Shown: piece by piece, positions 518-12,317 of the stretch
How positions within the stretch are numbered: position 1 is the first letter of the stretch
Layout: each line of letters starts with the position of its first letter
Source: Gemmatimonadales bacterium
GTDB lineage: Bacteria; Gemmatimonadota; Gemmatimonadetes; Gemmatimonadales; GWC2-71-9
Direction of reading: 5' to 3'
Assembly (NCBI GenBank): GCA_038216165.1
Contig: JBBQQJ010000003.1
Location: 1 to 38,260, forward strand
Length of the DNA: 38,260 bases
Position numbers and translations under genes: made by a program
The notes under the pieces: generated by a model
Databases searched by the model: none
What the model was told of the DNA's origin: nothing
Seen by the model: the letters and a program-made list of their open reading frames with translations, nothing else

Positions 518-2197
518 ATGCACTCCACCTTTGCCTCGCTCGGCCTGTCGCCGGTGCTCGTCGATGCCCTCACCGGCCTCGGATATGAAGAACCGACCCC
601 GGTCCAGCAGGCCGCCATCCCGCACCTGCTCGAAGGGCGCGACATCCTCGCCCAGGCAGCGACGGGGACGGGCAAGACCGCCGCCTTTGCACTTCCCCTG
701 CTCCAGCGGCTGCCGCAGACGGCCCCGGAGCCCTCCAAGCCCGCGATTCTGGTGTTGACCCCGACCCGCGAACTCGCGGTGCAGGTGGCCGAGGCGTTCC
801 ACCGATATGGCCGGGCACTGGGCGCACTGACGGTGCCGATCTACGGCGGTCAGGAGTTCTCGCAACAGATCCGCGTCCTCCGGCGCGGGGTGCACGTGGT
901 GGTCGCGACCCCGGGTCGGGCGCTCGACCACATGCGCCGCAACACGCTCGACCTCAGCAGCCTGATGGCCGTGGTGCTCGACGAGGCCGACGAGATGCTC
1001 GACATGGGCTTCGCCGACGAGATCGAGGCGATCCTCGAGGCAACGCCGGAGGGGCGCCAGACCGCGCTCTTCTCCGCCACGATGGCACCGCGCATCGCGA
1101 AGATCGCCAAGAAGCACTTGCGCGATCCAGCCCAGGTATTGGTGGCGCAGGAGGCGACCGCCGCCGGCGAGATGCCGAAGGTCCGCCAGACGGCGTACGT
1201 CGTGGCGCGCGGCCAGAAGGTGCAGGCGCTCGGGCGAGTGCTCGACCTCGAGGCGCCGACGCTCGCGCTGATCTTCTGCCGCACCCGCAATGAGGTCGAT
1301 GCCCTCGCCGAGTCGCTTGGCGGCCGCGGCTACCAGGTGCAGGCGCTGCACGGCGGGATGACGCAGGACCAGCGTGATCGGGTGATGAAGCGCACGCGTG
1401 GCGGTACGGTGGACATCCTCGTCGCGACCGACGTCGCGGCACGCGGGCTCGACATCGAGCAGATCACCCACGTGGTGAACTTCAACGTGCCCGAATCACC
1501 GGCGGCGTACGTGCACCGGATCGGGCGCACCGGACGCGCCGGTCGCGAGGGCGTGGCGATCACCTTCGCCGAGCCGCGCGAGCACCGGATGATCAAGAAC
1601 ATCGAGCAGCTCACTCGGCAAAAGGTCGAGATCGCGCGGCTCCCGACGGTGCTCGACGTGCGCAACAAGCAACTCGAGGTGACGCGCGCGTCAATCCGCG
1701 AGGCGATTCTCGGCGGCGACCTCGACGGCTACCGCGTGGTGGTCGAGTCGCTGGCGGAGGAGCACGACATCATGGACATCGCCACCGCCGCGGTGAAGCT
1801 GGCGCACCAGGCGGAAGTGGGCGCGATCGAGGAGGCGGAGATCGAGCAGCCGCCGCTGCAGCGCGAGCGACCGGGGGTGAGTGCGCGCAGCAGCAGCAGC
1901 AGCGGGCCGCGCAGTCGCGAGACCGCCGCGCCGCGCAAGCGTTCGGTGGGGATGTCGCGGATCTACATCGGCAGCGGCCGAAAGGACAACATGCGGCCCG
2001 CCGACCTCGTGGGTGCGATCGCCAACGAGGCGCAGATCGAGGCGAAGCAGATCGGTTCGATCGAGATCACCGACCGCTTCTCGCTGGTGGAACTGCCCGA
2101 GGAACTGGTGGATAGCGTGATCGCCGCGCTGCGGGCGACGAAGATCAAGGGGAAGCGGCAGACAGTGCGGCGCGACATGGCGACGAAGCGGGCGTAG
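518..2197 (+). CDS. deaD: ATP-dependent DEAD-box RNA helicase, DeaD/CsdA type with C-terminal DbpA-like RNA-binding domain
   Basis: Q motif (GYEEPTPVQ), ATGTGKT, PTRELA, DEAD, SAT and HRIGRTGRAG motifs; C-terminal GSGRKDNMRPADLVGAI...IGSIEI region is typical of DbpA domains. Confidence 0.92.
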   Translation: MHSTFASLGLSPVLVDALTGLGYEEPTPVQQAAIPHLLEGRDILAQAATGTGKTAAFALPLLQRLPQTAPEPSKPAILVLTPTRELAVQVAEAFHRYGRALGALTVPIYGGQEFSQQIRVLRRGVHVVVATPGRALDHMRRNTLDLSSLMAVVLDEADEMLDMGFADEIEAILEATPEGRQTALFSATMAPRIAKIAKKHLRDPAQVLVAQEATAAGEMPKVRQTAYVVARGQKVQALGRVLDLEAPTLALIFCRTRNEVDALAESLGGRGYQVQALHGGMTQDQRDRVMKRTRGGTVDILVATDVAARGLDIEQITHVVNFNVPESPAAYVHRIGRTGRAGREGVAITFAEPREHRMIKNIEQLTRQKVEIARLPTVLDVRNKQLEVTRASIREAILGGDLDGYRVVVESLAEEHDIMDIATAAVKLAHQAEVGAIEEAEIEQPPLQRERPGVSARSSSSSGPRSRETAAPRKRSVGMSRIYIGSGRKDNMRPADLVGAIANEAQIEAKQIGSIEITDRFSLVELPEELVDSVIAALRATKIKGKRQTVRRDMATKRA

Positions 2198-2203
2198 CTG
2201 AAT

Positions 2204-2242
2204 AAAGAGAGAAAGAGAGAAGGAGAGAAAGAGAGAAAGAAA
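2204..2242 (+). repeat. Purine-only (AAAGAGAG)n tandem tract; left half of an inverted pair with 4916-4949
   Basis: aaagagagaaagagagaaggagagaaagagagaaagaaa begins 6 nt after the deaD stop codon. Confidence 0.9.
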
Positions 2243-2261
2243 TCCTCGTCCCGAACGGACC

Positions 2262-2398
2262 CCCTCGTCCCGAACGCAGTGCTTGTCCCGAGCCTAGCGA
2301 GGGAAGGGACCTCGGCTGGTGCCACCATCCGGGCCCCTGACTATCGAGGTCGATCATTCCGCCAGCGCAGAGGTCCCTCACTGCGTTCGGGACGAGGG
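2262..2398. repeat. REPIN-like palindromic element copy R1 (137 bp = 114-bp unit + 23-bp insert at 2282-2304); preceded by a 14-bp partial arm at 2244-2257
   Basis: Left arm ccctcgtcccgaacgcagtg[insert]agggacctc, right arm gaggtccctcactgcgttcgggacgaggg; the core is nearly identical to R2 and R4. Confidence 0.92.
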
Positions 2399-2409
2399 AA
2401 CAGTCAGCC

Positions 2410-2742
2410 CTACGACCCCAGCACGTACCCGATCACCGCACCGATCAGCCCCACACCAGCCGCCAAGACCGCGGCCCGGAACGTCCCGGCGGGTACCTCG
2501 ACCACGTCGCGGACTACGGTGTAGCCGAGGACAGCACCGACGACACCTCCCACGATCGTCCAGGTGCGCTGGCGTTTGGATTTCATCTCACTGATCGCAC
2601 CTGACGGAATTTGGCGTGAATCAATGACGACTTCCGTCTGTGGCTGGCTCAAACCGATCCGTGTGCTCGATTGGCCGATGAGTCGATCCAGGGGTGCGCA
2701 CGTCAAGACGAGCGCGAGGAGTACGGACGAGATCTTGATCAT
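2410..2742 (-). CDS. Small hypothetical exported/membrane protein with C-terminal glycine-rich hydrophobic helices (alternative start 2754)
   Basis: MIKISSVLLALVLTCAPL signal-like N-terminus, then IVGGVVGAVLGY and GVGLIGAVIGYVLGS glycine-zipper-like helices. The ORF-track N-terminal extension runs through repeat R2 and is probably not real. Low GC (29/60 at 2581-2640, hand count). Confidence 0.65.
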   Translation of the reverse strand: MIKISSVLLALVLTCAPLDRLIGQSSTRIGLSQPQTEVVIDSRQIPSGAISEMKSKRQRTWTIVGGVVGAVLGYTVVRDVVEVPAGTFRAAVLAAGVGLIGAVIGYVLGS

Positions 2743-2785
2743 TTCAGCAACCATGTACGCCTTTGAGTTGCGTCGATGCGCCGGT

Positions 2786-2899
2786 CCCTCGTCCCGACCG
2801 TAGGGAGGGACCTCGGCCGGTGCCACCATCCGGGCCCCTGACTATCGAGGTCGATCATTCCGCAAGCGCAGAGGTCCCTCACTGCGTTCGGGACGAGGG
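2786..2899. repeat. REPIN-like palindromic element copy R2 (114 bp)
   Basis: 29-bp arms ccctcgtcccgaccgtagggagggacctc / gaggtccctcactgcgttcgggacgaggg around a 56-bp core. Confidence 0.93.
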
Positions 2900-3004
2900 T
2901 GCTCCGAGTGGCCGCTAAACTCTACCATGGAATCTCCATAGTTTACCTTAGCTCCTAAACCACACCATGGGGTGCGCTTTCAGCGCAATCTGTCTCCCGC
3001 CCCC

Positions 3005-4159
3005 CTACCGTTCCCCCGCTCCAACCAACCTCGGCATCACCACCACCCACGTCGGATCGTAGGGATCCGAGTCCGCTGCGCGGCCCAACAGGACACCTCG
3101 ACCGGTGCCACCCCAGAGGGAACGGTCGAACTGCTGGAAGGCGACCAGCGTCCCGCGGACCGGGTCGATGACCTCGATCCGGGTGTCGGTGTAGTGCGCG
3201 GGATTTGTGATTCTCGGTGCGATTGCCTCGCCGGTCCCGTCCCGGCGCCCGCTCTGCGGAGCGGCCGCGATCGCTGTGCGCCAGCGTGGATCAGGGACGC
3301 GCAGGACCACCCAGAGCAGGCCCGCATCGTCCTGCCAGAAGCCGACAACCCTGGATTGCGGCGGGCGGTCCGCGGAGGGGCGGACGACACCGGTGGCGGG
3401 GAACGGCGGATACCACGGCGCGTCCCGGTCAATCACCCGTCGTGGGGTCCGTTCTCCGACACCCCACAGCTCGACTGAATAGCTGCCGTTCTCGCGGAAA
3501 ACCCAGACTTCATCGGGGCGACTGCCACTGGCGCGCGTCGTGAAGAACCGCATGCGCCAATGCTCGGTGGGTCGCAGGTTGCCCTGCTTGGTGCCAAACG
3601 AACGCCCCATCACTCCCTGGCGCGAGAGCTCATGAAACGGATACCCGATCCGGTCAGCCTGCCCGACGACCTCATTCAGCACGAAGCGACCGTCAGCGGT
3701 TTCCACCGGGTTGCCGAGCCCCGACGGAGCGCGGAACGAGCGGACAAACCGCCCATCGGGGGAGAGCACACTGGCGCGCTGGAGCATCGGATCGAACAGC
3801 AGCAAGGAATCGCCGCGGGTCACGAGGATGTTCCGGAGCATCCTGAACTCGCCGGGGCCTTCGCCGGCCCGTTCCCACCCGCGCACGAACTGGCCCGTCG
3901 GTGAGAACAGCATGTACTCCGACGGGGGGCCGAACGCCAGATGGATTCGACCGGCGCCATCGACGTTCACGTCGGCCGGAATACCAGGCATGCCCGCTGG
4001 AGGTGCGGCGAGTTCAACGGTGCGGTCGAGCACGATGCGGCAGGCAGCGCACGCGGCCTTGTCCGCAATGGTGATTCTCTGTTGCGCCGCGACCGAACCG
4101 CCAACGATCAGGGTGACTGCCATCACGCACGCGACGATGCGCATCACTTTACCGAACAC
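3005..4159 (-). CDS. Secreted 6-bladed beta-propeller (NHL/TolB-like) protein; start GTG 4159 (GGAGG upstream) or ATG 4144
   Basis: Signal peptide MRIVACVMAVTLIVGGSVAA-Q; the GEGPGEFR motif, GDSLLLFD and SPDGRFVRSF blades are typical of this propeller family. Confidence 0.75.
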   Translation of the reverse strand: MFGKVMRIVACVMAVTLIVGGSVAAQQRITIADKAACAACRIVLDRTVELAAPPAGMPGIPADVNVDGAGRIHLAFGPPSEYMLFSPTGQFVRGWERAGEGPGEFRMLRNILVTRGDSLLLFDPMLQRASVLSPDGRFVRSFRAPSGLGNPVETADGRFVLNEVVGQADRIGYPFHELSRQGVMGRSFGTKQGNLRPTEHWRMRFFTTRASGSRPDEVWVFRENGSYSVELWGVGERTPRRVIDRDAPWYPPFPATGVVRPSADRPPQSRVVGFWQDDAGLLWVVLRVPDPRWRTAIAAAPQSGRRDGTGEAIAPRITNPAHYTDTRIEVIDPVRGTLVAFQQFDRSLWGGTGRGVLLGRAADSDPYDPTWVVVMPRLVGAGER

Positions 4160-4215
4160 GGCGGTCCTCCGGATGTAGAGTTTCCGATTGATCACCACCA
4201 TCATCACTGCCCGAT

Positions 4216-4329
4216 CCCTCGTCCCGAACGAAGGGAGGGACCTCTGCCGGTGCCACCATCCGGTACCGTTGCCACCAAGGTCGATCATTCCGCCAGGGCA
4301 GAGGTCCCTCCCTCCGGTCGGGACGAGGG
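4216..4329. repeat. REPIN-like palindromic element copy R3 (114 bp, most diverged core)
   Basis: Arms ccctcgtcccgaacgaagggagggacctctgcc / ggcagaggtccctccctccggtcgggacgaggg. Confidence 0.92.
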
Positions 4330-4344
4330 CCATCGATCAGCCGA

Positions 4345-4737
4345 CTACACCAGCCGCTCCAGCCGACCCTTCCGCTTCACCAGATTCTTGTAGTCCCATT
4401 GGATGTCGCGCCCCTTGGCACACCAACGCTGGAGGTCGGCCGTTCGGACCTGCGCCACATCGGTGAAGGTGACCGACGCGTCCTTGAATTTGGCTCCACG
4501 ATCAACGAGGCCGGGCTCCTCAAACGACTGGCCGCTCCAGAACATCAGCCGCACGCCGTCCTTGAGCTTGCTGTACCCCGCGATCGGGTTGCCATCCAGA
4601 AACCAGACCGGGTGCGCGTGCCACACCTTCTGCTCGGCATCGGGAAGGTGGCGGCTGATCTCCGCCGCGAGGAGCTCGCAGATGGCGCGATCAGCCGGGG
4701 CGAGCCCGTCGTGGTAACGAGCGATGTCAGGGTGCAT
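4345..4737 (-). CDS. DUF1801 (YdhG-like) domain protein (alternative GTG start 4752)
   Basis: EQKVWHAHPVWFLDGNPIAGYSKLKDGVRLMFWSGQSFEEPGL...IQWDYKNLVKRKGRLERL is a recognisable DUF1801 subfamily signature. Confidence 0.85.
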   Translation of the reverse strand: MHPDIARYHDGLAPADRAICELLAAEISRHLPDAEQKVWHAHPVWFLDGNPIAGYSKLKDGVRLMFWSGQSFEEPGLVDRGAKFKDASVTFTDVAQVRTADLQRWCAKGRDIQWDYKNLVKRKGRLERLV

Positions 4738-4793
4738 GGATGCTGGCGACACGGTGCCTCCCTGGGCAAACGTCATTTCAGAGCACTGTGGAC

Positions 4794-4907
4794 CCCTCGT
4801 CCCGAACGCAGTGAGGGACCTCGGCCGGTGCCACCACCCGGTCCCCTGACTATCGAGGTCTATCATTCCGCAAGCGCAGAGGTCCCTCACTGCGTTCGGG
4901 ACGAGGG
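4794..4907. repeat. REPIN-like palindromic element copy R4 (114 bp, perfect 29-bp arms)
   Basis: ccctcgtcccgaacgcagtgagggacctc ... gaggtccctcactgcgttcgggacgaggg. Confidence 0.93.
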
Positions 4908-4915
4908 GGTATGCC

Positions 4916-4949
4916 TTCTCTCTTTCTCTCTTTCTCTCTTTCTCTCTTT
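4916..4949 (-). repeat. Pyrimidine tract, (AAAGAGAG)x4 on the minus strand; right half of the inverted pair with 2204-2242
   Basis: ttctctctttctctctttctctctttctctcttt overlaps the ltaE TAA stop codon. Confidence 0.9.
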
Positions 4950-5964
4950 ACAGCTTTCCTAGCAGCGCATCCACATCATCACTGTCCGTCGCCCACGAGC
5001 ACATCAGCCGCACCTCGTGGCGCGTCTCGTCCCACTCGTAAAAGTGGAAATCCCGTTGCAGCCGCTCGATCATCTCCGGCGCCATCAGCGCGAACACCGC
5101 GTTCGCCTCCACCTGCTGCGTGACCGTGATGCCCTTCGCCGAGAGCCCCGCCGCGAGTCGCTGCGCCATTGAGTTCGCTTGCCGAGCATTGTCGAGCCAG
5201 AGATCGTGCTCCGCCAGCGCCACCACCTGTGCCGCCAGGAAGCGCATCTTGGACGCCAACTGGGTGGACTGCTTCCGGATGTACTTGAACTGCGGCACCA
5301 GTGCGGGGTTCAGCAACACCACCGCCTCTGCACCGATCGCCCCGTTCTTGGTGAGTCCGAAGGAGAGCGCATCGACCCCGGTATCGGTGATCAGCTCGCG
5401 CAACGTCACGTCGAGCGATGCGGCGGCGTTGGCGATCCGCGCACCATCCACGTGCACCAGCAGGCCGTGGCCGTATGCCTCCGCCACCAGCGCGCCGAGT
5501 CCGTCCACCGTGTAGGCCGTGCCATACTCGGTGGTCTGCGTGAGCGAGAGCACCCGCGGCTGCACGTGATGCTCGAACCCGACGCCCTTGAGCGCCGCGG
5601 CGCGCACCTGTTCCACCGTGAGTTTGGCATCAACGCTGGGCAGGTCAAGCAGTTTGCATCCGCCGAGCAACTCGGGCGCACCGCACTCGTCCACGTGGAT
5701 GTGCGCCTGGTCGCTGCAGATGACGGCCTCCCACGGCCGAGTCATCGCGCGCAATGCACTGACGTTGGCCCCGGTGCCGTTCCACACCAGGAACGATTCC
5801 GCGTGCCCACCGAACTGATCCTTGAACCACGCCTCGGCACGCCGGGTCCAGACGTCATTGCCGTAGGCGCCCGCGCTGTCGGCATTGGCCGCCACCATCG
5901 CGTCGAGCACCACCGGGTGCGCGGGCGCGGCGTTGTCGCTGCGGAACTCTCCGGGCAGGCTCAC
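4948..5964 (-). CDS. ltaE: Low-specificity L-threonine aldolase (PLP-dependent)
   Basis: FRSDN, AYGND, GTGAN, HIHVDECGAPE, HVDGARIANA and SFGLTKNG (PLP lysine) motifs. Confidence 0.88.
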   Translation of the reverse strand: MSLPGEFRSDNAAPAHPVVLDAMVAANADSAGAYGNDVWTRRAEAWFKDQFGGHAESFLVWNGTGANVSALRAMTRPWEAVICSDQAHIHVDECGAPELLGGCKLLDLPSVDAKLTVEQVRAAALKGVGFEHHVQPRVLSLTQTTEYGTAYTVDGLGALVAEAYGHGLLVHVDGARIANAAASLDVTLRELITDTGVDALSFGLTKNGAIGAEAVVLLNPALVPQFKYIRKQSTQLASKMRFLAAQVVALAEHDLWLDNARQANSMAQRLAAGLSAKGITVTQQVEANAVFALMAPEMIERLQRDFHFYEWDETRHEVRLMCSWATDSDDVDALLGKL

Positions 5965-6337: not shown

Positions 6338-7279
6338 TCACTCGGGGTGCCGACTCGCCACCGCGAGCCGGACGTTGCGGCGCATCCGCTCCAGGCCGGG
6401 GCGCGCCAAGGGTGTTTCCGCAAAGTGGGCGGTGAACTCCGCCTCGCTCATCGCCGCAAAATAGGCGGGATCCCGCCGGTCCGGCGCCGGCCGCCGGGCA
6501 TACTCCGGCTCCTTCGTGGCCTCGGCGAACTTCACGTTCCACGGGCAGGCATCGTTGCACACGTCGCACCCGAACGCCCACCCGTCCCACTGCGGCCCCA
6601 GCTCGGCCGGTGGGTCGGCACGATGCTCGATGGTGAGGTAGCTGAGGCAGCGGGTGGCATCAAGCACCCGCTCGCCCACGAATGCCCCCGTCGGGCAGGC
6701 CTCGAGACAGCGCGTGCAGGTGCCGCAGTGATCCGCCACGAGTGGCTGGTCGGGGGTCAGGTCGAGATCGGTGAAGATCGTGCCGATGAAGGTGTACGAC
6801 CCGATCTGCGGGTGGATCAGCATCGTGTTCTTCCCGATCCACCCCAACCCCGCGCGTTCGGCGAGTTCCCGCTCGGGGACCGGACCATCATCGAGCCACA
6901 CGTGCGCCAGCTCCGCCCCCTCCGCCAGCAACCAGTGGGCGAGCCGGTGCAACCGCCCGTGCGCCACCAGGTGATAGTCGGTCCCGCGCGCGTAGCTCGC
7001 GATTTTGTAGGCGTCGCCCGGCTGCGGTCGCTCATGCTCGGGGGGGGCATAGTTTTCGAGCACCACCACCGCGCTCCGTGCCCCGGGCGTGATGGTGGCG
7101 GGCGCCTTCCGCTTGCGGGCCTGGCGCGGGAGGTAGCCCATGGTGCCCGCATGGCCGGCACGGAGCCAGGCGTCGAGCGCATCGCCGCGGCCACTCGGGT
7201 CGAGGCGCGCCGCCCCGCAGGCCACGAAACCGAGGCGAAGGGCCTCGTCCCGGATGGCCGCGACGGTGGGCGGCGTCAC
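6338..7279 (-). CDS. queG: tRNA epoxyqueuosine(34) reductase
   Basis: YARGTDYH, DDGPVPERELAERAGLGWIGKN, CGTCTRCLEACP, RCLSYLTIE and GCDVCNDACPWN motifs; GTG start overlaps the upstream TGA. Confidence 0.93.
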   Translation of the reverse strand: MTPPTVAAIRDEALRLGFVACGAARLDPSGRGDALDAWLRAGHAGTMGYLPRQARKRKAPATITPGARSAVVVLENYAPPEHERPQPGDAYKIASYARGTDYHLVAHGRLHRLAHWLLAEGAELAHVWLDDGPVPERELAERAGLGWIGKNTMLIHPQIGSYTFIGTIFTDLDLTPDQPLVADHCGTCTRCLEACPTGAFVGERVLDATRCLSYLTIEHRADPPAELGPQWDGWAFGCDVCNDACPWNVKFAEATKEPEYARRPAPDRRDPAYFAAMSEAEFTAHFAETPLARPGLERMRRNVRLAVASRHPE

Positions 7280-8571
7280 CCGAGGCGGCGACCGTGGCGG
7301 GAGGAAAATTCGCCGGTTTCGCCGGTGATGAGCCGTGCGCCCGGCGCGTAGCGAACGTAGGACCAGCCCCACTCAATGAGCACCATCAGCCGGTTGCGGA
7401 AGTTCACGAGGAAGGCGATGTGGACCACCGCCCAGATCCACCACGCGAGCAGCCCCCCGAAGGCGAAGCGCCAGATGTCGGCCACGGCATGGCCGCGACC
7501 GATCACGGCGAGCTGGCCCTTGTCCCAGTACTGGAACGGTCGCCGCGGCCGACCGGCGAGATCGGCGGTGATGCTGCGGGCGGTGTAGCCCCCCATCTGG
7601 ATCGCCACCGGACAGGTCCCCGGCAGCGCCGCGGGCTGGCCCTCCTGATGATGGAATGCAGCCGCGTCCCCCAGCACAAAGCAGTCGGGGTGGCCCGGAA
7701 TGGTGCAATCGGGCTCGACCAGCGCGCGTCCCTGCCGGTCCAGCGGCACGCCGAGGGTGGCCAGGAGCGGCGAGGCCTGGTTGCCGGCGGCCCAGATCAC
7801 GGTGGTGGTCGGGATCGTCCACCCGGCCGCCGCCACGTAGCCGGCCGTCACGTTGGTGACCATCGTGTTCTCGCGCACGTCCACCCCAAGGGAGCGGAGG
7901 TCCTGCTTGGCCCGCGTGCTCAGCTTCTCGGGGTAGCTGGAGAGGATGCGTCCCCCCCCCTCGAGCAGGAGCACCGTCGCCTCGCGCGGGTCGATGTGCC
8001 GGAAGTCACGCGCCAGCGCGTAGCGCCGCAGCTCGGCGATCGCCCCCGCCATCTCCACGCCTGTCGGCCCGCCACCGATCACCACGAAGGTCAGGTACTG
8101 GTGCCGTTTGGCCGGATCGGGTTCGCGCTCGGCCTTTTCGAAGGCCAGCAGCACGCGGCGGCGCACCTCGAGCGCGTCCTCGATCGCCTTGAGCCCCGGC
8201 GCGTGGGGCTCCCAGTCGTCATGGCCGAAGTAGGCATGCCGGGCCCCGGTGGCGATCACGCAGTAGTCGTAGCCGACTGCGGTGCCGGTGGCGAAGTGGA
8301 CGGTGCGCGCGACGGGATCGACGCGCGTGACCTCCGCCATCTGCACCTCGACGTTGCGCTGCCGGCGGAGGATGGCACGAATCGGGGTGGCGATGTCCTG
8401 CGGCGAGAGGGCTGCCGTGGCCACCTGATAGAGCATCGGCTGGAAGAGATGGTGATTGCGGCGGTCGATCAGGGTGATGCGCACGGGGGCGCGCTTGAGC
8501 CCCTTCGCGAGATACAGCCCCGCGAAGCCCCCGCCAATGATCACCACGTGCGGCCGGTCCTCGCGTGCCAT
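7276..8571 (-). CDS. ndh: Type II NADH:quinone oxidoreductase (NAD(P)/FAD-dependent)
   Basis: GGGFAG, HHLFQPMLYQVATA, GGGPTGVEMAG, WAAG, LGD and KGQLAVIGR motifs. Confidence 0.88.
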   Translation of the reverse strand: MAREDRPHVVIIGGGFAGLYLAKGLKRAPVRITLIDRRNHHLFQPMLYQVATAALSPQDIATPIRAILRRQRNVEVQMAEVTRVDPVARTVHFATGTAVGYDYCVIATGARHAYFGHDDWEPHAPGLKAIEDALEVRRRVLLAFEKAEREPDPAKRHQYLTFVVIGGGPTGVEMAGAIAELRRYALARDFRHIDPREATVLLLEGGGRILSSYPEKLSTRAKQDLRSLGVDVRENTMVTNVTAGYVAAAGWTIPTTTVIWAAGNQASPLLATLGVPLDRQGRALVEPDCTIPGHPDCFVLGDAAAFHHQEGQPAALPGTCPVAIQMGGYTARSITADLAGRPRRPFQYWDKGQLAVIGRGHAVADIWRFAFGGLLAWWIWAVVHIAFLVNFRNRLMVLIEWGWSYVRYAPGARLITGETGEFSSRHGRRLG

Positions 8572-10808: not shown

Positions 10809-12317
10809 ATGAGCGACCCCGCTGCACCAGTCGCCCCTCCCCGGCGGCAGGCGTGGACCGCACTGGCGCTCCTCGCCTTCATCAACATCCTCAACTATCT
10901 CGACCGCAACGTCATCTTCGCGTTGTTCGAGCCGATCAAGGCCGACCTCGGGCTCACCGACGCACAGCTTGGCTGGCTCGGTTCGGCCTACATCCTCGTC
11001 TTCTCGATGGCCGCCCTGCCGCTGGGCATCCTCAGCGACCTGAAGAGCCGGAAGGGCGTCATCGCCGGTGGTGTGGCCCTGTGGAGCGCGTTCACCGCAC
11101 TGGGCGGCCTGGTGCGCACCTACTGGCAGCTCTTTGTCTGCCGGGCCGCGGTGGGCATCGGCGAGGCGGCGTACGGGCCGGCGGCGAGCTCGATGACGGC
11201 CGATTATTTCCCCGGCAAGGATCGCGCGATCGCGATGGGGATCCTGGCGGCCGGGATTCCGGTGGGCGGCGTCCTGGGGCTCCTCCTCGGCGGCTGGCTG
11301 GAAGGGATCTACGGCTGGCGCGTGGCGTTCATGGCCGTGGGGCTGCCGGGCTTCGCCTGCGCCCTGCTCGTCTCGCGCCTCAAGGACCCGACCCGCGTGG
11401 ACGAACCGCTGACAGTGCGCAGCGTGCTCCAGGAACTCGAGATCGGCGTGCGGGGCTTCGTGCGGCAGTTGCTGCCGGCGATTACCTGGGCCGCCATCGG
11501 CCTGGGCGCCGCGTGGGTCGCGAGTGAGTTCTACGGGGCCGACTCCGCGGTGGATGCCGCCGTCTTCGCCGTGGCGCTGACGATCGGCGTGGCGCTCACC
11601 ATCTGGCGCTGGGTACGGCTGGTGCGCGCGAACCGTCGGGAGGAGACACCGTTCACCCCCGCGCTCGAGGGAGCAGTCGATGACCTGGTGCGCGCCGGGC
11701 GCCGCGTGCTCGGCACGCCGACCTTGGTGTATGTCTTCCTGGCGGGGGCGATGATCTCGTTCGGCCTCAACGGGTTGGTGGGCTGGGGCCCGACCTTCAT
11801 GACGCGCGAGTTCAACATCTCCTCAGGCACCGCTGCGGGCCTGCTCGGCAAGTGGGGACTCCTCGCCGGCGTCCTCGGCGCGCTGGCCGGCGGCGCCGTG
11901 GCCGACTTCCTCGAGCGCTACACCGAACGGGGCCGCGTCATCACCATCGGTGCCGGACTCCTCCTCGGCGGGCCGCTGGCGGTGTGGCTGCTCCTGGTCC
12001 ACGACCTCGACCTCTTCATGCCGATCTTTGCCGTGGCGTTCTTCTTTCTGAGCTGGTACAACGGCCCGCTCACCGCGGTCATCTTTGACGTCGTGCCGCC
12101 GCGCGTCGGCGCCACGGTGAGTGGCGCATACCTGCTGTTCATCCACCTTGCTGGTGATGCCATCGCCTTCCCGCTCGTCGGCTCGCTCAGCGACCGCTTT
12201 GGGCTGCGCACCGCCGCGCTGGTGCTCCCTGCGGTGGCGATCCTGGGTGGCATCGTGGTGCTGGGGGCGATGCGCACCATCGGCGCCGACCGGCGCCGCG
12301 CGCAGGGCGAGGGGTAG
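10809..12317 (+). CDS. MFS transporter (spinster-like)
   Basis: NILNYLDRN, LGILSDLKSRK (motif A), RAAVGIGEA and many transmembrane helices. Confidence 0.9.
   Translation: MSDPAAPVAPPRRQAWTALALLAFINILNYLDRNVIFALFEPIKADLGLTDAQLGWLGSAYILVFSMAALPLGILSDLKSRKGVIAGGVALWSAFTALGGLVRTYWQLFVCRAAVGIGEAAYGPAASSMTADYFPGKDRAIAMGILAAGIPVGGVLGLLLGGWLEGIYGWRVAFMAVGLPGFACALLVSRLKDPTRVDEPLTVRSVLQELEIGVRGFVRQLLPAITWAAIGLGAAWVASEFYGADSAVDAAVFAVALTIGVALTIWRWVRLVRANRREETPFTPALEGAVDDLVRAGRRVLGTPTLVYVFLAGAMISFGLNGLVGWGPTFMTREFNISSGTAAGLLGKWGLLAGVLGALAGGAVADFLERYTERGRVITIGAGLLLGGPLAVWLLLVHDLDLFMPIFAVAFFFLSWYNGPLTAVIFDVVPPRVGATVSGAYLLFIHLAGDAIAFPLVGSLSDRFGLRTAALVLPAVAILGGIVVLGAMRTIGADRRRAQGEG

Follow-up and report, generated by a model that had tools for sequence, protein, structure and literature searches.

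A covarying hairpin repeat family of Gemmatimonadales that resembles the NTS/SRM class and lies near small GIY-YIG nuclease genes in relatives

Introduction

Site-specific nucleases of the Ssn type, which act on single-stranded DNA (ssDNA), were first described in 2025. Ssn proteins are small GIY-YIG nucleases whose binding to the hairpin of NTS/SRM repeats requires ssDNA, is confined to one strand and does not extend to RNA, and which cut a few nucleotides upstream of it; in NTS, three upstream bases are critical and the C that follows the palindrome is the most crucial position for binding (PMC11893778). Their cognate hairpins have so far been sought with one degenerate pattern. Other repeats also act as folded DNA: the attC sites of integrons recombine folded as ssDNA (PMC4889954, PMC8618304), and GNA loops closed by a C-G pair are known as a stable DNA motif (PMC13037366, PMC3201870). 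Here we analyse four inverted repeats, R1 to R4, in a 38,260-nucleotide (nt) stretch of a Gemmatimonadales genome (assembly GCA_038216165.1, contig JBBQQJ010000003.1, positions 1 to 38,260), referred to below as the window.

These repeats belong to a family of REP type whose unit is the single arm, and two units combine into the 114-nt repeat as an inverted doublet. The covariation of the arm, the spread of the family, its placement downstream of genes and its association in relatives with small GIY-YIG genes were all computed here. By analogy with described systems, we hold it to be fairly probable that each arm is a unit of the nuclease-associated NTS/SRM (CGTC/TGTC-tagged) class. Throughout, G000 is the source genome, whose contig C3 holds the window; other G numbers denote relatives and L numbers denote loci.

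Results

The arm hairpin covaries within itself

R1 to R4 share one orientation and a mutual identity of 86-95%, and are the only full-length copies in the source genome (2.8 Mb, 343 contigs, 90% complete). In each, a spacer of some 50 nt separates two 33-nt arms that are inverted relative to each other (Table 1). Read inward, all eight arms take the form GTCCC-GA-xC-NNN-Gy-GA-GGGAC. The four arm variants given by an earlier sequence-only reading of this DNA (AC-GCA-GT, CC-GTA-GG, AC-GAA-GG and CC-GGA-GG) were reproduced, the first of them occurring in both arms of R1 and of R4 and in the right arm of R2. In the left arm of R3 the x-y position is an unpaired A.G mismatch. Only two arms in the window covary, which alone is little proof, and a larger sample of matches was therefore collected.

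The anchor CCTCGTCCC-N11-GGGAC, which leaves the inner 11 bases free, was matched across 61 genomes. It occurs 18 times in the source genome, 62 times in G013, eight times in G032, four in G014, twice in G006 and once each in G009, G052 and G056; the reversed pattern gave 0-2 matches per genome. Over all the sequence examined, 109 distinct matches were collected; solo units enter this count on either strand, and a few of the matches are due to chance. GA...GA is present in 88 of the 109, and in six of the remaining 21 the 5' position has TC, as expected for a solo unit read from its reverse strand. Among the 88 GA...GA arms, x-y is a Watson-Crick pair in 83 (C-G 41, G-C 25, A-T 17), the remainder being G-T (2), A-G, T-T and C-C (1 each), and 85 arms have a Watson-Crick second inner pair. 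A GNA loop is found in 72 of these arms, with G as first base in 75, A as last base in 79 and any base in the middle; the non-GNA loops are AAC (5), GAC (3), AAA (3), ACA (2), ATA, CAA and ACC (1 each). In a chance-match control (the anchor plus CTC, in other taxa) all five features were found together in 0/102 matches, and both inner pairs in 4/102. The constancy of the tandem GA/GA and the covariation of the inner pair, both claimed earlier from the window, hold in this sample, GA/GA being near-invariant; the accompanying claim that the G and A of the loop are fixed was too strict.

The two arms of a doublet were then compared in an alignment of 32 doublets, from which R1 was excluded because its insert misaligned. 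The x-y pair within the arm is kept in 30/32 left arms and in 30/32 right arms, with three pair types on each side, and 0/500 shuffles attained the observed covariation score. Pairing between the arms, by contrast, is kept in only 17/32 doublets at x, 19/32 at the loop middle and 20/32 at y. Within each x-y type the middle base of the loop is free while x-y remains paired, and in one G032 doublet the second pair has changed to T-A with compensation in both arms. The covariation counts are of sequences, not of events, and with no more than three to four pair types they may go back to few ancestral changes; the left arms of R2 and R4 differ exactly at x, the loop middle and y, and look like a block-swapped tip. 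The C directly after the palindrome (column 26) is present in 32/32 left arms, a position that the search pattern left free except at a few named loci.

The long arm-to-arm stem is thus not what is preserved, as had been suggested from the window. Loop and GA/GA positions that vary freely, together with changes that preserve arm-to-arm pairing, had been named beforehand as the outcome that would count against a folded arm; the changes instead keep the arm's own pairing, and GA/GA does not drift. The GA form lies on the + strand in the left arm and on the - strand in the right arm, so that each strand of a repeat has one GA-type hairpin, in its 5' arm. Of the proposal that selection acts on a strand-specific ssDNA fold, the fold is borne out by the kept pairing within the arm and the uncorrected GA/GA, and strand specificity is true of the unit, not of the whole repeat. 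That GA/GA is never corrected points to a folded single strand rather than to a double-stranded palindrome.

Nearest-neighbour calculations with DNA parameters place the arm hairpins at -3.3 to -5.0 kcal/mol. For A-type arms they do not separate the GA from the TC strand, since the models have no terms for GNA triloops or sheared G.A pairs; an RNA model favours the GA strand by 1.2-2 kcal/mol. The whole element folds as RNA at -65 to -84 kcal/mol, and both of its folded strands are free of extrahelical or bulged bases and of an unpaired central spacer.

A repeat family abundant in one Gemmatimonadales family

The same arm occurs outside R1 to R4 as a solo 31-nt hairpin, CCCTCGTCCC-N11-GGGACGAGGG, on contigs C91, C16 and C302 of the source genome, in doublets with spacers of about 17 to 60 nt, and in nested forms. 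From 5' to 3', a unit consists of an oriented tag, which is CCTCGT in the window and TGTCAT in sister subfamilies, then a short GC stem, the tandem G.A mismatch, two base pairs of which the outer covaries, and a 3-nt loop that is mostly GNA, with the C directly after the palindrome. Conservation of the unit, not of the doublet, accounts both for the pairing within arms and for the frequency of mixed doublets. R1 itself contains a nested unit in its left arm, brought in by a 23-nt insert at 2282-2304 that appears as a side hairpin in the single-strand fold; this unit has the loop CTA, the tag CTTGT and the tail AAG, and its subtype also adjoins a small GIY-YIG gene in the relative G065.

A core motif, CCCGA-NC-NNN-GN-GAGGG, was counted in 52 genomes of the genus, including the unpublished G024 and G033. 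It is present in 49 of them at 0-87 copies per genome, 32 in the source genome and some 1300 units in the genus as a whole; the reversed pattern gave 0-2 per strand. In a sample of 151 genomes of the phylum, including the unpublished G116 and G151, high counts (up to 160) fall almost only in the family of the window, with one outlier elsewhere at 32. The repeat family is therefore abundant and patchy within one Gemmatimonadales family. A metagenome scan with a pattern specific to the window's spacer returned 45 loci, none a doublet of the family and all chance-like. Searches of the literature gave no match to five literal unit sequences and nothing joining Gemmatimonads with REP, REPIN or RAYT, and Rfam at gathering thresholds gave no match anywhere in the window; a permissive Rfam search gave only sub-threshold matches to generic miRNA hairpins.

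In G013 the doublets, of about 107 nt, are mostly solitary and spread over many contigs. Doublets lie 5-150 nt 3' of stop codons, and the neighbouring genes of the 13 that could be classed out of 21 are convergent in five cases, tandem in eight and divergent in none. For solo units the crude open reading frame (ORF) caller used, based on GC content at third codon positions, was noisy and made many spurious in-ORF calls, and hand-read cases were used in its place.

Two further hairpins accompany the family. One, GTCGCT-NNA-GCGAC, replaces the right arm of some GA-type doublets (G013:C18, L054 2700-3720; L206, L210). The other follows the repeat GCTGGGGCGGGACTCGAGCCGC and has the form GTCCTGAGCG-NNN(N)-GCGAAGGA, some copies with a GAAA loop; it recurs near degenerate doublets (G000:C31:16450-16560 and 11990-12030; L205 on G013:C14).

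Units lie beside small GIY-YIG genes in relatives

Small single-domain GIY-YIG genes are present in 28 of the 52 genus genomes, encoding proteins of 88-139 amino acids (aa) as called, with PF01541 scores of 43-61 bits. A unit lies within 500 nt of the GIY-YIG domain in 13 of the 28 loci and on both sides of it in eight, the usual layout being an upstream unit on the same strand and a downstream unit on the opposite strand. At comparison loci, a unit was found at 0/11 intI genes and one unit in seven Y1_Tnp loci. The units that flank the GIY-YIG genes of G064 and G009 carry the window's own tag and tail, CCTCGT ... ACCT. Overall, 26 of the 39 units beside nuclease genes have CCTCGT, TGTCAT or TGTCAC as their tag, and the tail starts ACC or ATC in 32 of the 39. 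Several of the small GIY-YIG ORFs run into a unit, and their predicted C-termini are unit-derived peptides, for example PERSEG or PSLRSG (L337, L344, L352, L354, L356).

Copy number follows the same gene. Genomes with a small GIY-YIG gene have a median of 19.5 copies (n=28) and those without it a median of 5 (n=24; Mann-Whitney p=0.0003). Tested in this way, neither IntI (p=0.28) nor Y1_Tnp (p=0.51) showed a link to copy number. The link of the hairpins to small GIY-YIG nucleases is an association only. It bears on the sequence-only reading, which had proposed a protein that recognises the fold, as with HUH transposase or integrase substrates, and had mentioned GIY-YIG proteins among its checks but not in its inference: recognition by a protein gains from the presence of the same hairpins around small GIY-YIG genes in relatives, while the HUH transposase and the integrase do not fit. 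In substance, that of a folded single-strand site for a protein, the earlier interpretation is partly supported.

The doublets lie at spots of variable gene content

In the window, four doublets separate three closely packed genes, ORF1 to ORF3, all on the minus strand, between a helicase gene and a lyase gene (Table 1). By eye, the ORF1 translation has a signal-like start and a glycine-rich hydrophobic end. ORF2 belongs to a multi-copy family in the genus, and homologues of ORF3 occur in nine of the 51 other genus genomes, in unrelated contexts. One of these, the ORF3 (DUF1801) homologue of G075:C149, is 68% identical and lies directly upstream of intI on the same strand (L040 1257-1640; intI 146-1090); the eight others lie elsewhere. 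R2 and R3 are mirror-image heterodimers around ORF2, each with its C-type arm outward and its A-type arm inward, and from their sequences look like the two products of one exchange between C/C and A/A doublets.

The orthologous helicase-lyase spot of G013 has the same GA-rich and TC-rich flanks, the GA-rich repeat at 2203-2240 being retained there, and holds a Fic gene and one degenerate doublet. On contig C17 of G013, two doublets (L055 1255-1361 and 3089-3195) are exact reverse complements over 107/107 positions and bracket arsR-family, SAM-methyltransferase and LMWPc (ArsC-like) genes; with GA-rich and TC-rich outer flanks, the whole forms a giant palindrome with the genes in its loop. In G062, a run of doublets has one small ORF after each. 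These differing inserts at doublet-flanked spots suggest that doublets mark the borders of variable gene content. A test for cassette mobility was negative, in that the ORF3 homologues of nine genomes and one close ORF2 homologue lie in unrelated contexts without units, and a gene plus its doublet is therefore not a conserved travelling unit.

Two features of the surroundings recur. Short tandem repeats flank hairpin elements on one side, and their reverse complements do so on the other, in the window (2203-2240/4910-4950), on G000 contigs C7, C32, C91 and C251, and in G013 (L055-L070, L209-L218); the bracketing tandem unit varies by locus and includes 8-mers such as AAAGAGAG and the 7-mers GGTGAAC, CCAATCA, CCCTCAC and GGATGTT. 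An AT-richer stretch downstream of ORF2 (2915-2975) shares the word CCTAAACCACAC with an AT-rich region upstream of the Fic gene in G013 (L225 10240-10310).

Table 1. Repeats, hairpin units and genes at the locus (window coordinates)
Feature	Position	Strand	Remark
Left flanking core gene, DEAD-box RNA helicase (DEAD, Helicase_C, DbpA domains)	518..2197	+	orthologue in G013
GA-rich 8-mer tandem repeat 3' of helicase stop codon	2203..2240	+	inverted partner of 4910-4950
Partial extra copy of unit 5' end, CCTCGTCCCGAACG	2244..2259	+	directly left of R1
R1, inverted doublet of two hairpin units, 137 nt	2262..2398		extra unit nested in left arm
Nested hairpin unit in R1 left arm	2286..2304	+	TCCC-GA-GC-CTA-GC-GA-GGGA
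Unit core, R1 right arm	2373..2393	-	GA form
ORF1, 113 aa	2410..2751	-	no Pfam match
R2, inverted doublet, 114 nt	2786..2899		heterodimer: left C-type CC-GTA-GG, right A-type AC-GCA-GT
Unit core, R2 left arm	2791..2811	+	GA form
Unit core, R2 right arm	2874..2894	-	GA form
ORF2, 382 aa	3005..4153	-	sole Pfam match weak and sub-cut-off, 6-bladed beta-propeller DUF5128
R3, inverted doublet, 114 nt	4216..4329		left AC-GAA-GG (A.G mismatch), right C-type CC-GGA-GG
Unit core, R3 left arm	4221..4241	+	GA form
Unit core, R3 right arm	4304..4324	-	GA form
ORF3, 131 aa	4345..4740	-	DUF1801
R4, inverted doublet, 114 nt	4794..4907		A-type in both arms, perfect 29-bp arm-to-arm stem
Unit core, R4 left arm	4799..4819	+	GA form
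Unit core, R4 right arm	4882..4902	-	GA form
TC-rich tandem repeat 3' of lyase gene stop codon	4910..4950	+	reverse complement of 2203-2240
Right flanking core gene, Beta_elim_lyase family (threonine-aldolase-like)	4948..5964	-	convergent with helicase; orthologue in G013

Discussion

If the units belong to the NTS/SRM class, the GA-strand hairpin would fold whenever the DNA is single-stranded, as in transformation uptake, conjugation, replication or repair. An Ssn-like nuclease would then bind the folded GA-strand hairpin and nick a few bases 5' of the tag. The inversion of one unit relative to the other would give either strand one cuttable unit at the outer edge of the doublet. Four sister doublets fence three accessory genes between conserved convergent genes, and the sites therefore probably shape how the accessory genes they bracket are gained, lost and passed on. 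In the source genome the sites may be orphans, or the nuclease gene may be unassembled.

Several observations weigh against membership of this nuclease-associated class. No small GIY-YIG gene was found in the source genome: tblastn with 14 proteins of the genus gave nothing at E<=0.01 in its 343 contigs (90% complete), and both of its PF01541 matches fall in long proteins, one a frame of 630 aa and the other a UvrC/Cho-like ORF of 388 aa. Among the small GIY-YIG loci, 15/28 have no unit in the locus; G015 (94% complete) has 61 copies and no such gene, and G023, G026 and G027 have the gene and only 0-3 copies of the strict motif. The genomes of a genus are kin, so that p=0.0003 overstates the association. 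Pfam assigns the small proteins no more than GIY-YIG, their nearest solved chains are those of UPF0213 proteins (1zg2, 1ywl), and NCBIfam gives them no name. The published degenerate SRM pattern has no match in window positions 2200-4960 or in the unit-bearing loci of five relatives, and its 24 matches in the whole of G000 are chance-like; it fails on the units at their G.A mismatch, and units of the window's subtype also depart from it at the W in its tag. Two Gemmatimonas genomes listed in Supplementary Data 4 of the Ssn paper have no ssnA homologue and no SRM excess (PMC11893778). On energetic grounds, the long arm-to-arm stem of a single-stranded whole doublet is 22-33 kcal/mol (DNA parameters) stabler than both arm hairpins, and the small fold would therefore count for solo units or while one arm alone is exposed. 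Finally, a unit lies 74-280 nt downstream of a xer-like tyrosine recombinase gene in 8/30 loci, so that the nuclease is not the only gene to have units close by. The units at these loci vary, being solo or doublet and of differing subtypes (G000:C16:6603-6631 beside 6731-7561; L229-L258). The xer-like recombinase, a core gene present in 50/52 genus genomes, was set aside as a partner.

A second explanation is that the repeats act mainly as RNA, as a two-way transcript-end or 3'-protecting stem-loop in which the arm hairpin is an RNA feature and no nuclease is involved. Many REPs have been argued to work as RNA (Di Nocera 2013, PMC3733652), and the placement of doublets shortly after stop codons, between convergent or tandem genes and never between divergent ones among those classed, is what such an element would show. 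The very stable RNA fold of the whole element, the pyrimidine- or U-rich run that the GA-rich and TC-rich flanks yield after the stem in both directions, and the stability of tandem G.A in RNA, reflected in the RNA model's preference for the GA strand, are also in keeping with it. Yet a transcript-end stem would gain from the arm-to-arm pairing that is lost here, and many flanks are not U-rich, for example the GGTGAAC repeats. Solo units, moreover, take either sense relative to the transcript in the hand-read cases: the GA form is antisense between Tag-like and DnaE2-like genes (G000:C91) and between hslV and hslU (G013), but sense on C16, where the unit follows the xer-like gene, and on C87, with three more cases from the crude ORF calls giving two sense and one antisense. 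An RNA role also leaves the association with nuclease genes unexplained. As the main function we consider it unlikely; it is compatible with the nuclease-associated explanation, and the long stem may act as a transcript-end structure alongside a role in DNA.

A more far-reaching proposal, to which we give similarly little credence, is that doublets are the borders of a cassette-like gene-flux system run by small GIY-YIG single-strand nicking without a recombinase. Accessory genes with outward-facing units on either side would be cut from, or filtered out of, ssDNA at doublets and then re-inserted at other doublets; the bracketed sets would comprise the three window ORFs, the ars-type set and the Fic gene of G013, and the nuclease gene itself in relatives. 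The G.A/GNA hairpin would in that event define a new class of nuclease specificity missed by published searches.

The arrangement in the window also invites comparison with integrons, in which case the four repeats would be the attC sites of an integrase-less cassette array (CALIN) recombined as folded strands by the IntI encoded on C91. An integron integrase is indeed encoded in the genome (TIGR02249 score 383 bits, cut-off 265), CALINs are common, and the pattern of a CALIN, with at least two like-oriented sites between ORFs inside 4 kb (PMC4889954), is found here: four like sites of 114-137 nt, within the attC range, separate three packed ORFs of the same orientation. A-type arms read GAAC...GTTC, like the AAC/GTT triplet, and the ORF3 homologue of G075 adjoins intI. 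Against this, the folds have neither extrahelical bases nor an unpaired central spacer, R4 forming its stem without interruption, and the middle base of the would-be triplet is C or G in 66/83 Watson-Crick arms and A in only 17/83. No unit lies within 1.5 kb of intI in any of the 11 loci, nor in the 18 kb upstream of the G013 intI. Copy number is unrelated to IntI, which occurs in 26/52 genus genomes: G069 (2 contigs) has 72 copies without IntI, and G030 and G023 have IntI with 0 copies. Units are mostly solitary and scattered, and ORF3 homologues elsewhere stand without them. An attC identity is accordingly very unlikely. Beside the intI of the source genome, after its first ORF, lies a perfect 19-bp stem with a 4-nt loop (GGAACGGGGGGAGGGAGCA/ACCG/..., G000:C91:2560-2625), which is unlike GA-type units.

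More doubtful still is that the doublets are REPINs copied by a REP-associated Y1 (HUH) transposase (RAYT). In architecture they match REP doublets, which are inverted pairs, either homo- or heterodimers, spaced by 20-100 nt (PMC3733652); the units are short extragenic palindromes, often in inverted doublets and downstream of genes, as REPs are, and Y1_Tnp genes occur in 28/52 genus genomes. The units nevertheless have no GTAG tag, no Y1_Tnp was found in the source genome, and both Y1 and IntI are lacking from G061 (98% complete, 27 copies) and from G007. The near-absence of units from Y1 loci and the lack of a copy-number link speak against it too, and the RAYT-like Y1 gene of G013 is flanked on both sides by the other hairpin, GTCGCT-NNA-GCGAC. 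Least credible of all is the absence of selection on the fold, with three arm alleles spread by copying and short-patch conversion and the palindrome serving a dimeric protein that binds it double-stranded: the mere three main x-y types, the block-like difference between the R2 and R4 left arms and the counting of sequences instead of events would suit it, but a double-stranded dyad would read GA...TC and not the GA...GA of most anchor matches (with TC at the 5' position in some of the others), the loop middle varies freely within a type while x-y stays paired, and the G032 doublet has, in both arms, a compensated fourth change, to T-A at the second pair.

The reading of the arms as nuclease-associated units has consequences beyond this locus. 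What is new is a class of hairpin with a tandem G.A and a GNA-rich triloop near small GIY-YIG genes, outside both the published pattern and the known phylum range; if the link holds, the spread of Ssn-type systems is underestimated. Natural covariation splits the structural positions (x-y and the loop middle) from those that are read as sequence (GA/GA, the tag and the trailing C), a ready basis for the design of new ssDNA-cutting specificities. Accessory genes fenced at a species-variable spot offer a way to test, in bacteria other than Neisseria, the part in gene exchange that has been proposed for such repeats.

Comparison with described systems

With attC sites and CALINs the repeats share their form as imperfect palindromes of about 60-140 nt, their single orientation between promoterless ORFs and the presence of an integrase in the genome (PMC4889954, PMC8618304); unlike attC, they have no extrahelical bases, no unpaired spacer and no conserved triplet, and they are linked to intI neither in position nor in number. 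REPIN/RAYT and BIME elements are likewise inverted doublets that can fold as two small hairpins or as one long one (PMC3116915). The repeats here differ from REPIN/RAYT in the missing GTAG tag and Y1 link, a relative's Y1 gene having hairpins of its own.

The loops recall the DNA mini-hairpins GCGNAGC and the d(GNA) triloops, and G-type arms hold GCGNAGC exactly. What is reported of these in the sources cited (PMC13037366, PMC3201870) is the physical chemistry of oligonucleotides, not genomic repeats, and the likeness here is one of sequence.

Closer are the CGTC/TGTC-tagged REPs, which include dRS3 of Neisseria (PMC3733652). They too end in a tag of the CGTC/TGTC/CCTC type and occur predominantly as head-to-head dimers with 20-100 bp spacers, with heterodimers common and unexplained; they lie downstream of convergent or unidirectional ORFs, some of the dimers inside larger palindromes, and that account knows no dedicated tyrosine transposase for them. 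In tagged REPs the stem, of 8-9 bp, starts with A/T pairs, the loop measures 4-5 nt and the tail is CCA, whereas the units here have the tag in the outer stem of solo units, a G.A/G.A break in the stem and a 3-nt loop.

The closest likeness is to NTS/SRM. The units differ from it in the tandem G.A mismatch of the stem and in the covarying pair under a mostly GNA triloop, their tag departs from that of NTS at the A/T position, and the phylum Gemmatimonadota is absent from the main text of the Ssn paper (PMC11893778). In both, however, the repeat is a short hairpin with an oriented 5' tag (CGTCAT in NTS, CCTCGT or TGTCAT here) and a C after the palindrome. The hairpin repeat of the SRM class is a 20-50 nt inverted repeat in many copies, and the source genome holds its 32 copies with a fold backed by covariation; the oriented 5' flank and the C after the palindrome that mark the class are likewise found. 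SRM repeats flank small single-domain GIY-YIG genes on both sides, as the units here do at 8/28 loci of relatives, no such gene having been found in the source genome. In both systems the repeats number tens to hundreds of copies, often in inverted pairs and around variable genes, and copy number follows the presence of the gene (PMC11893778).

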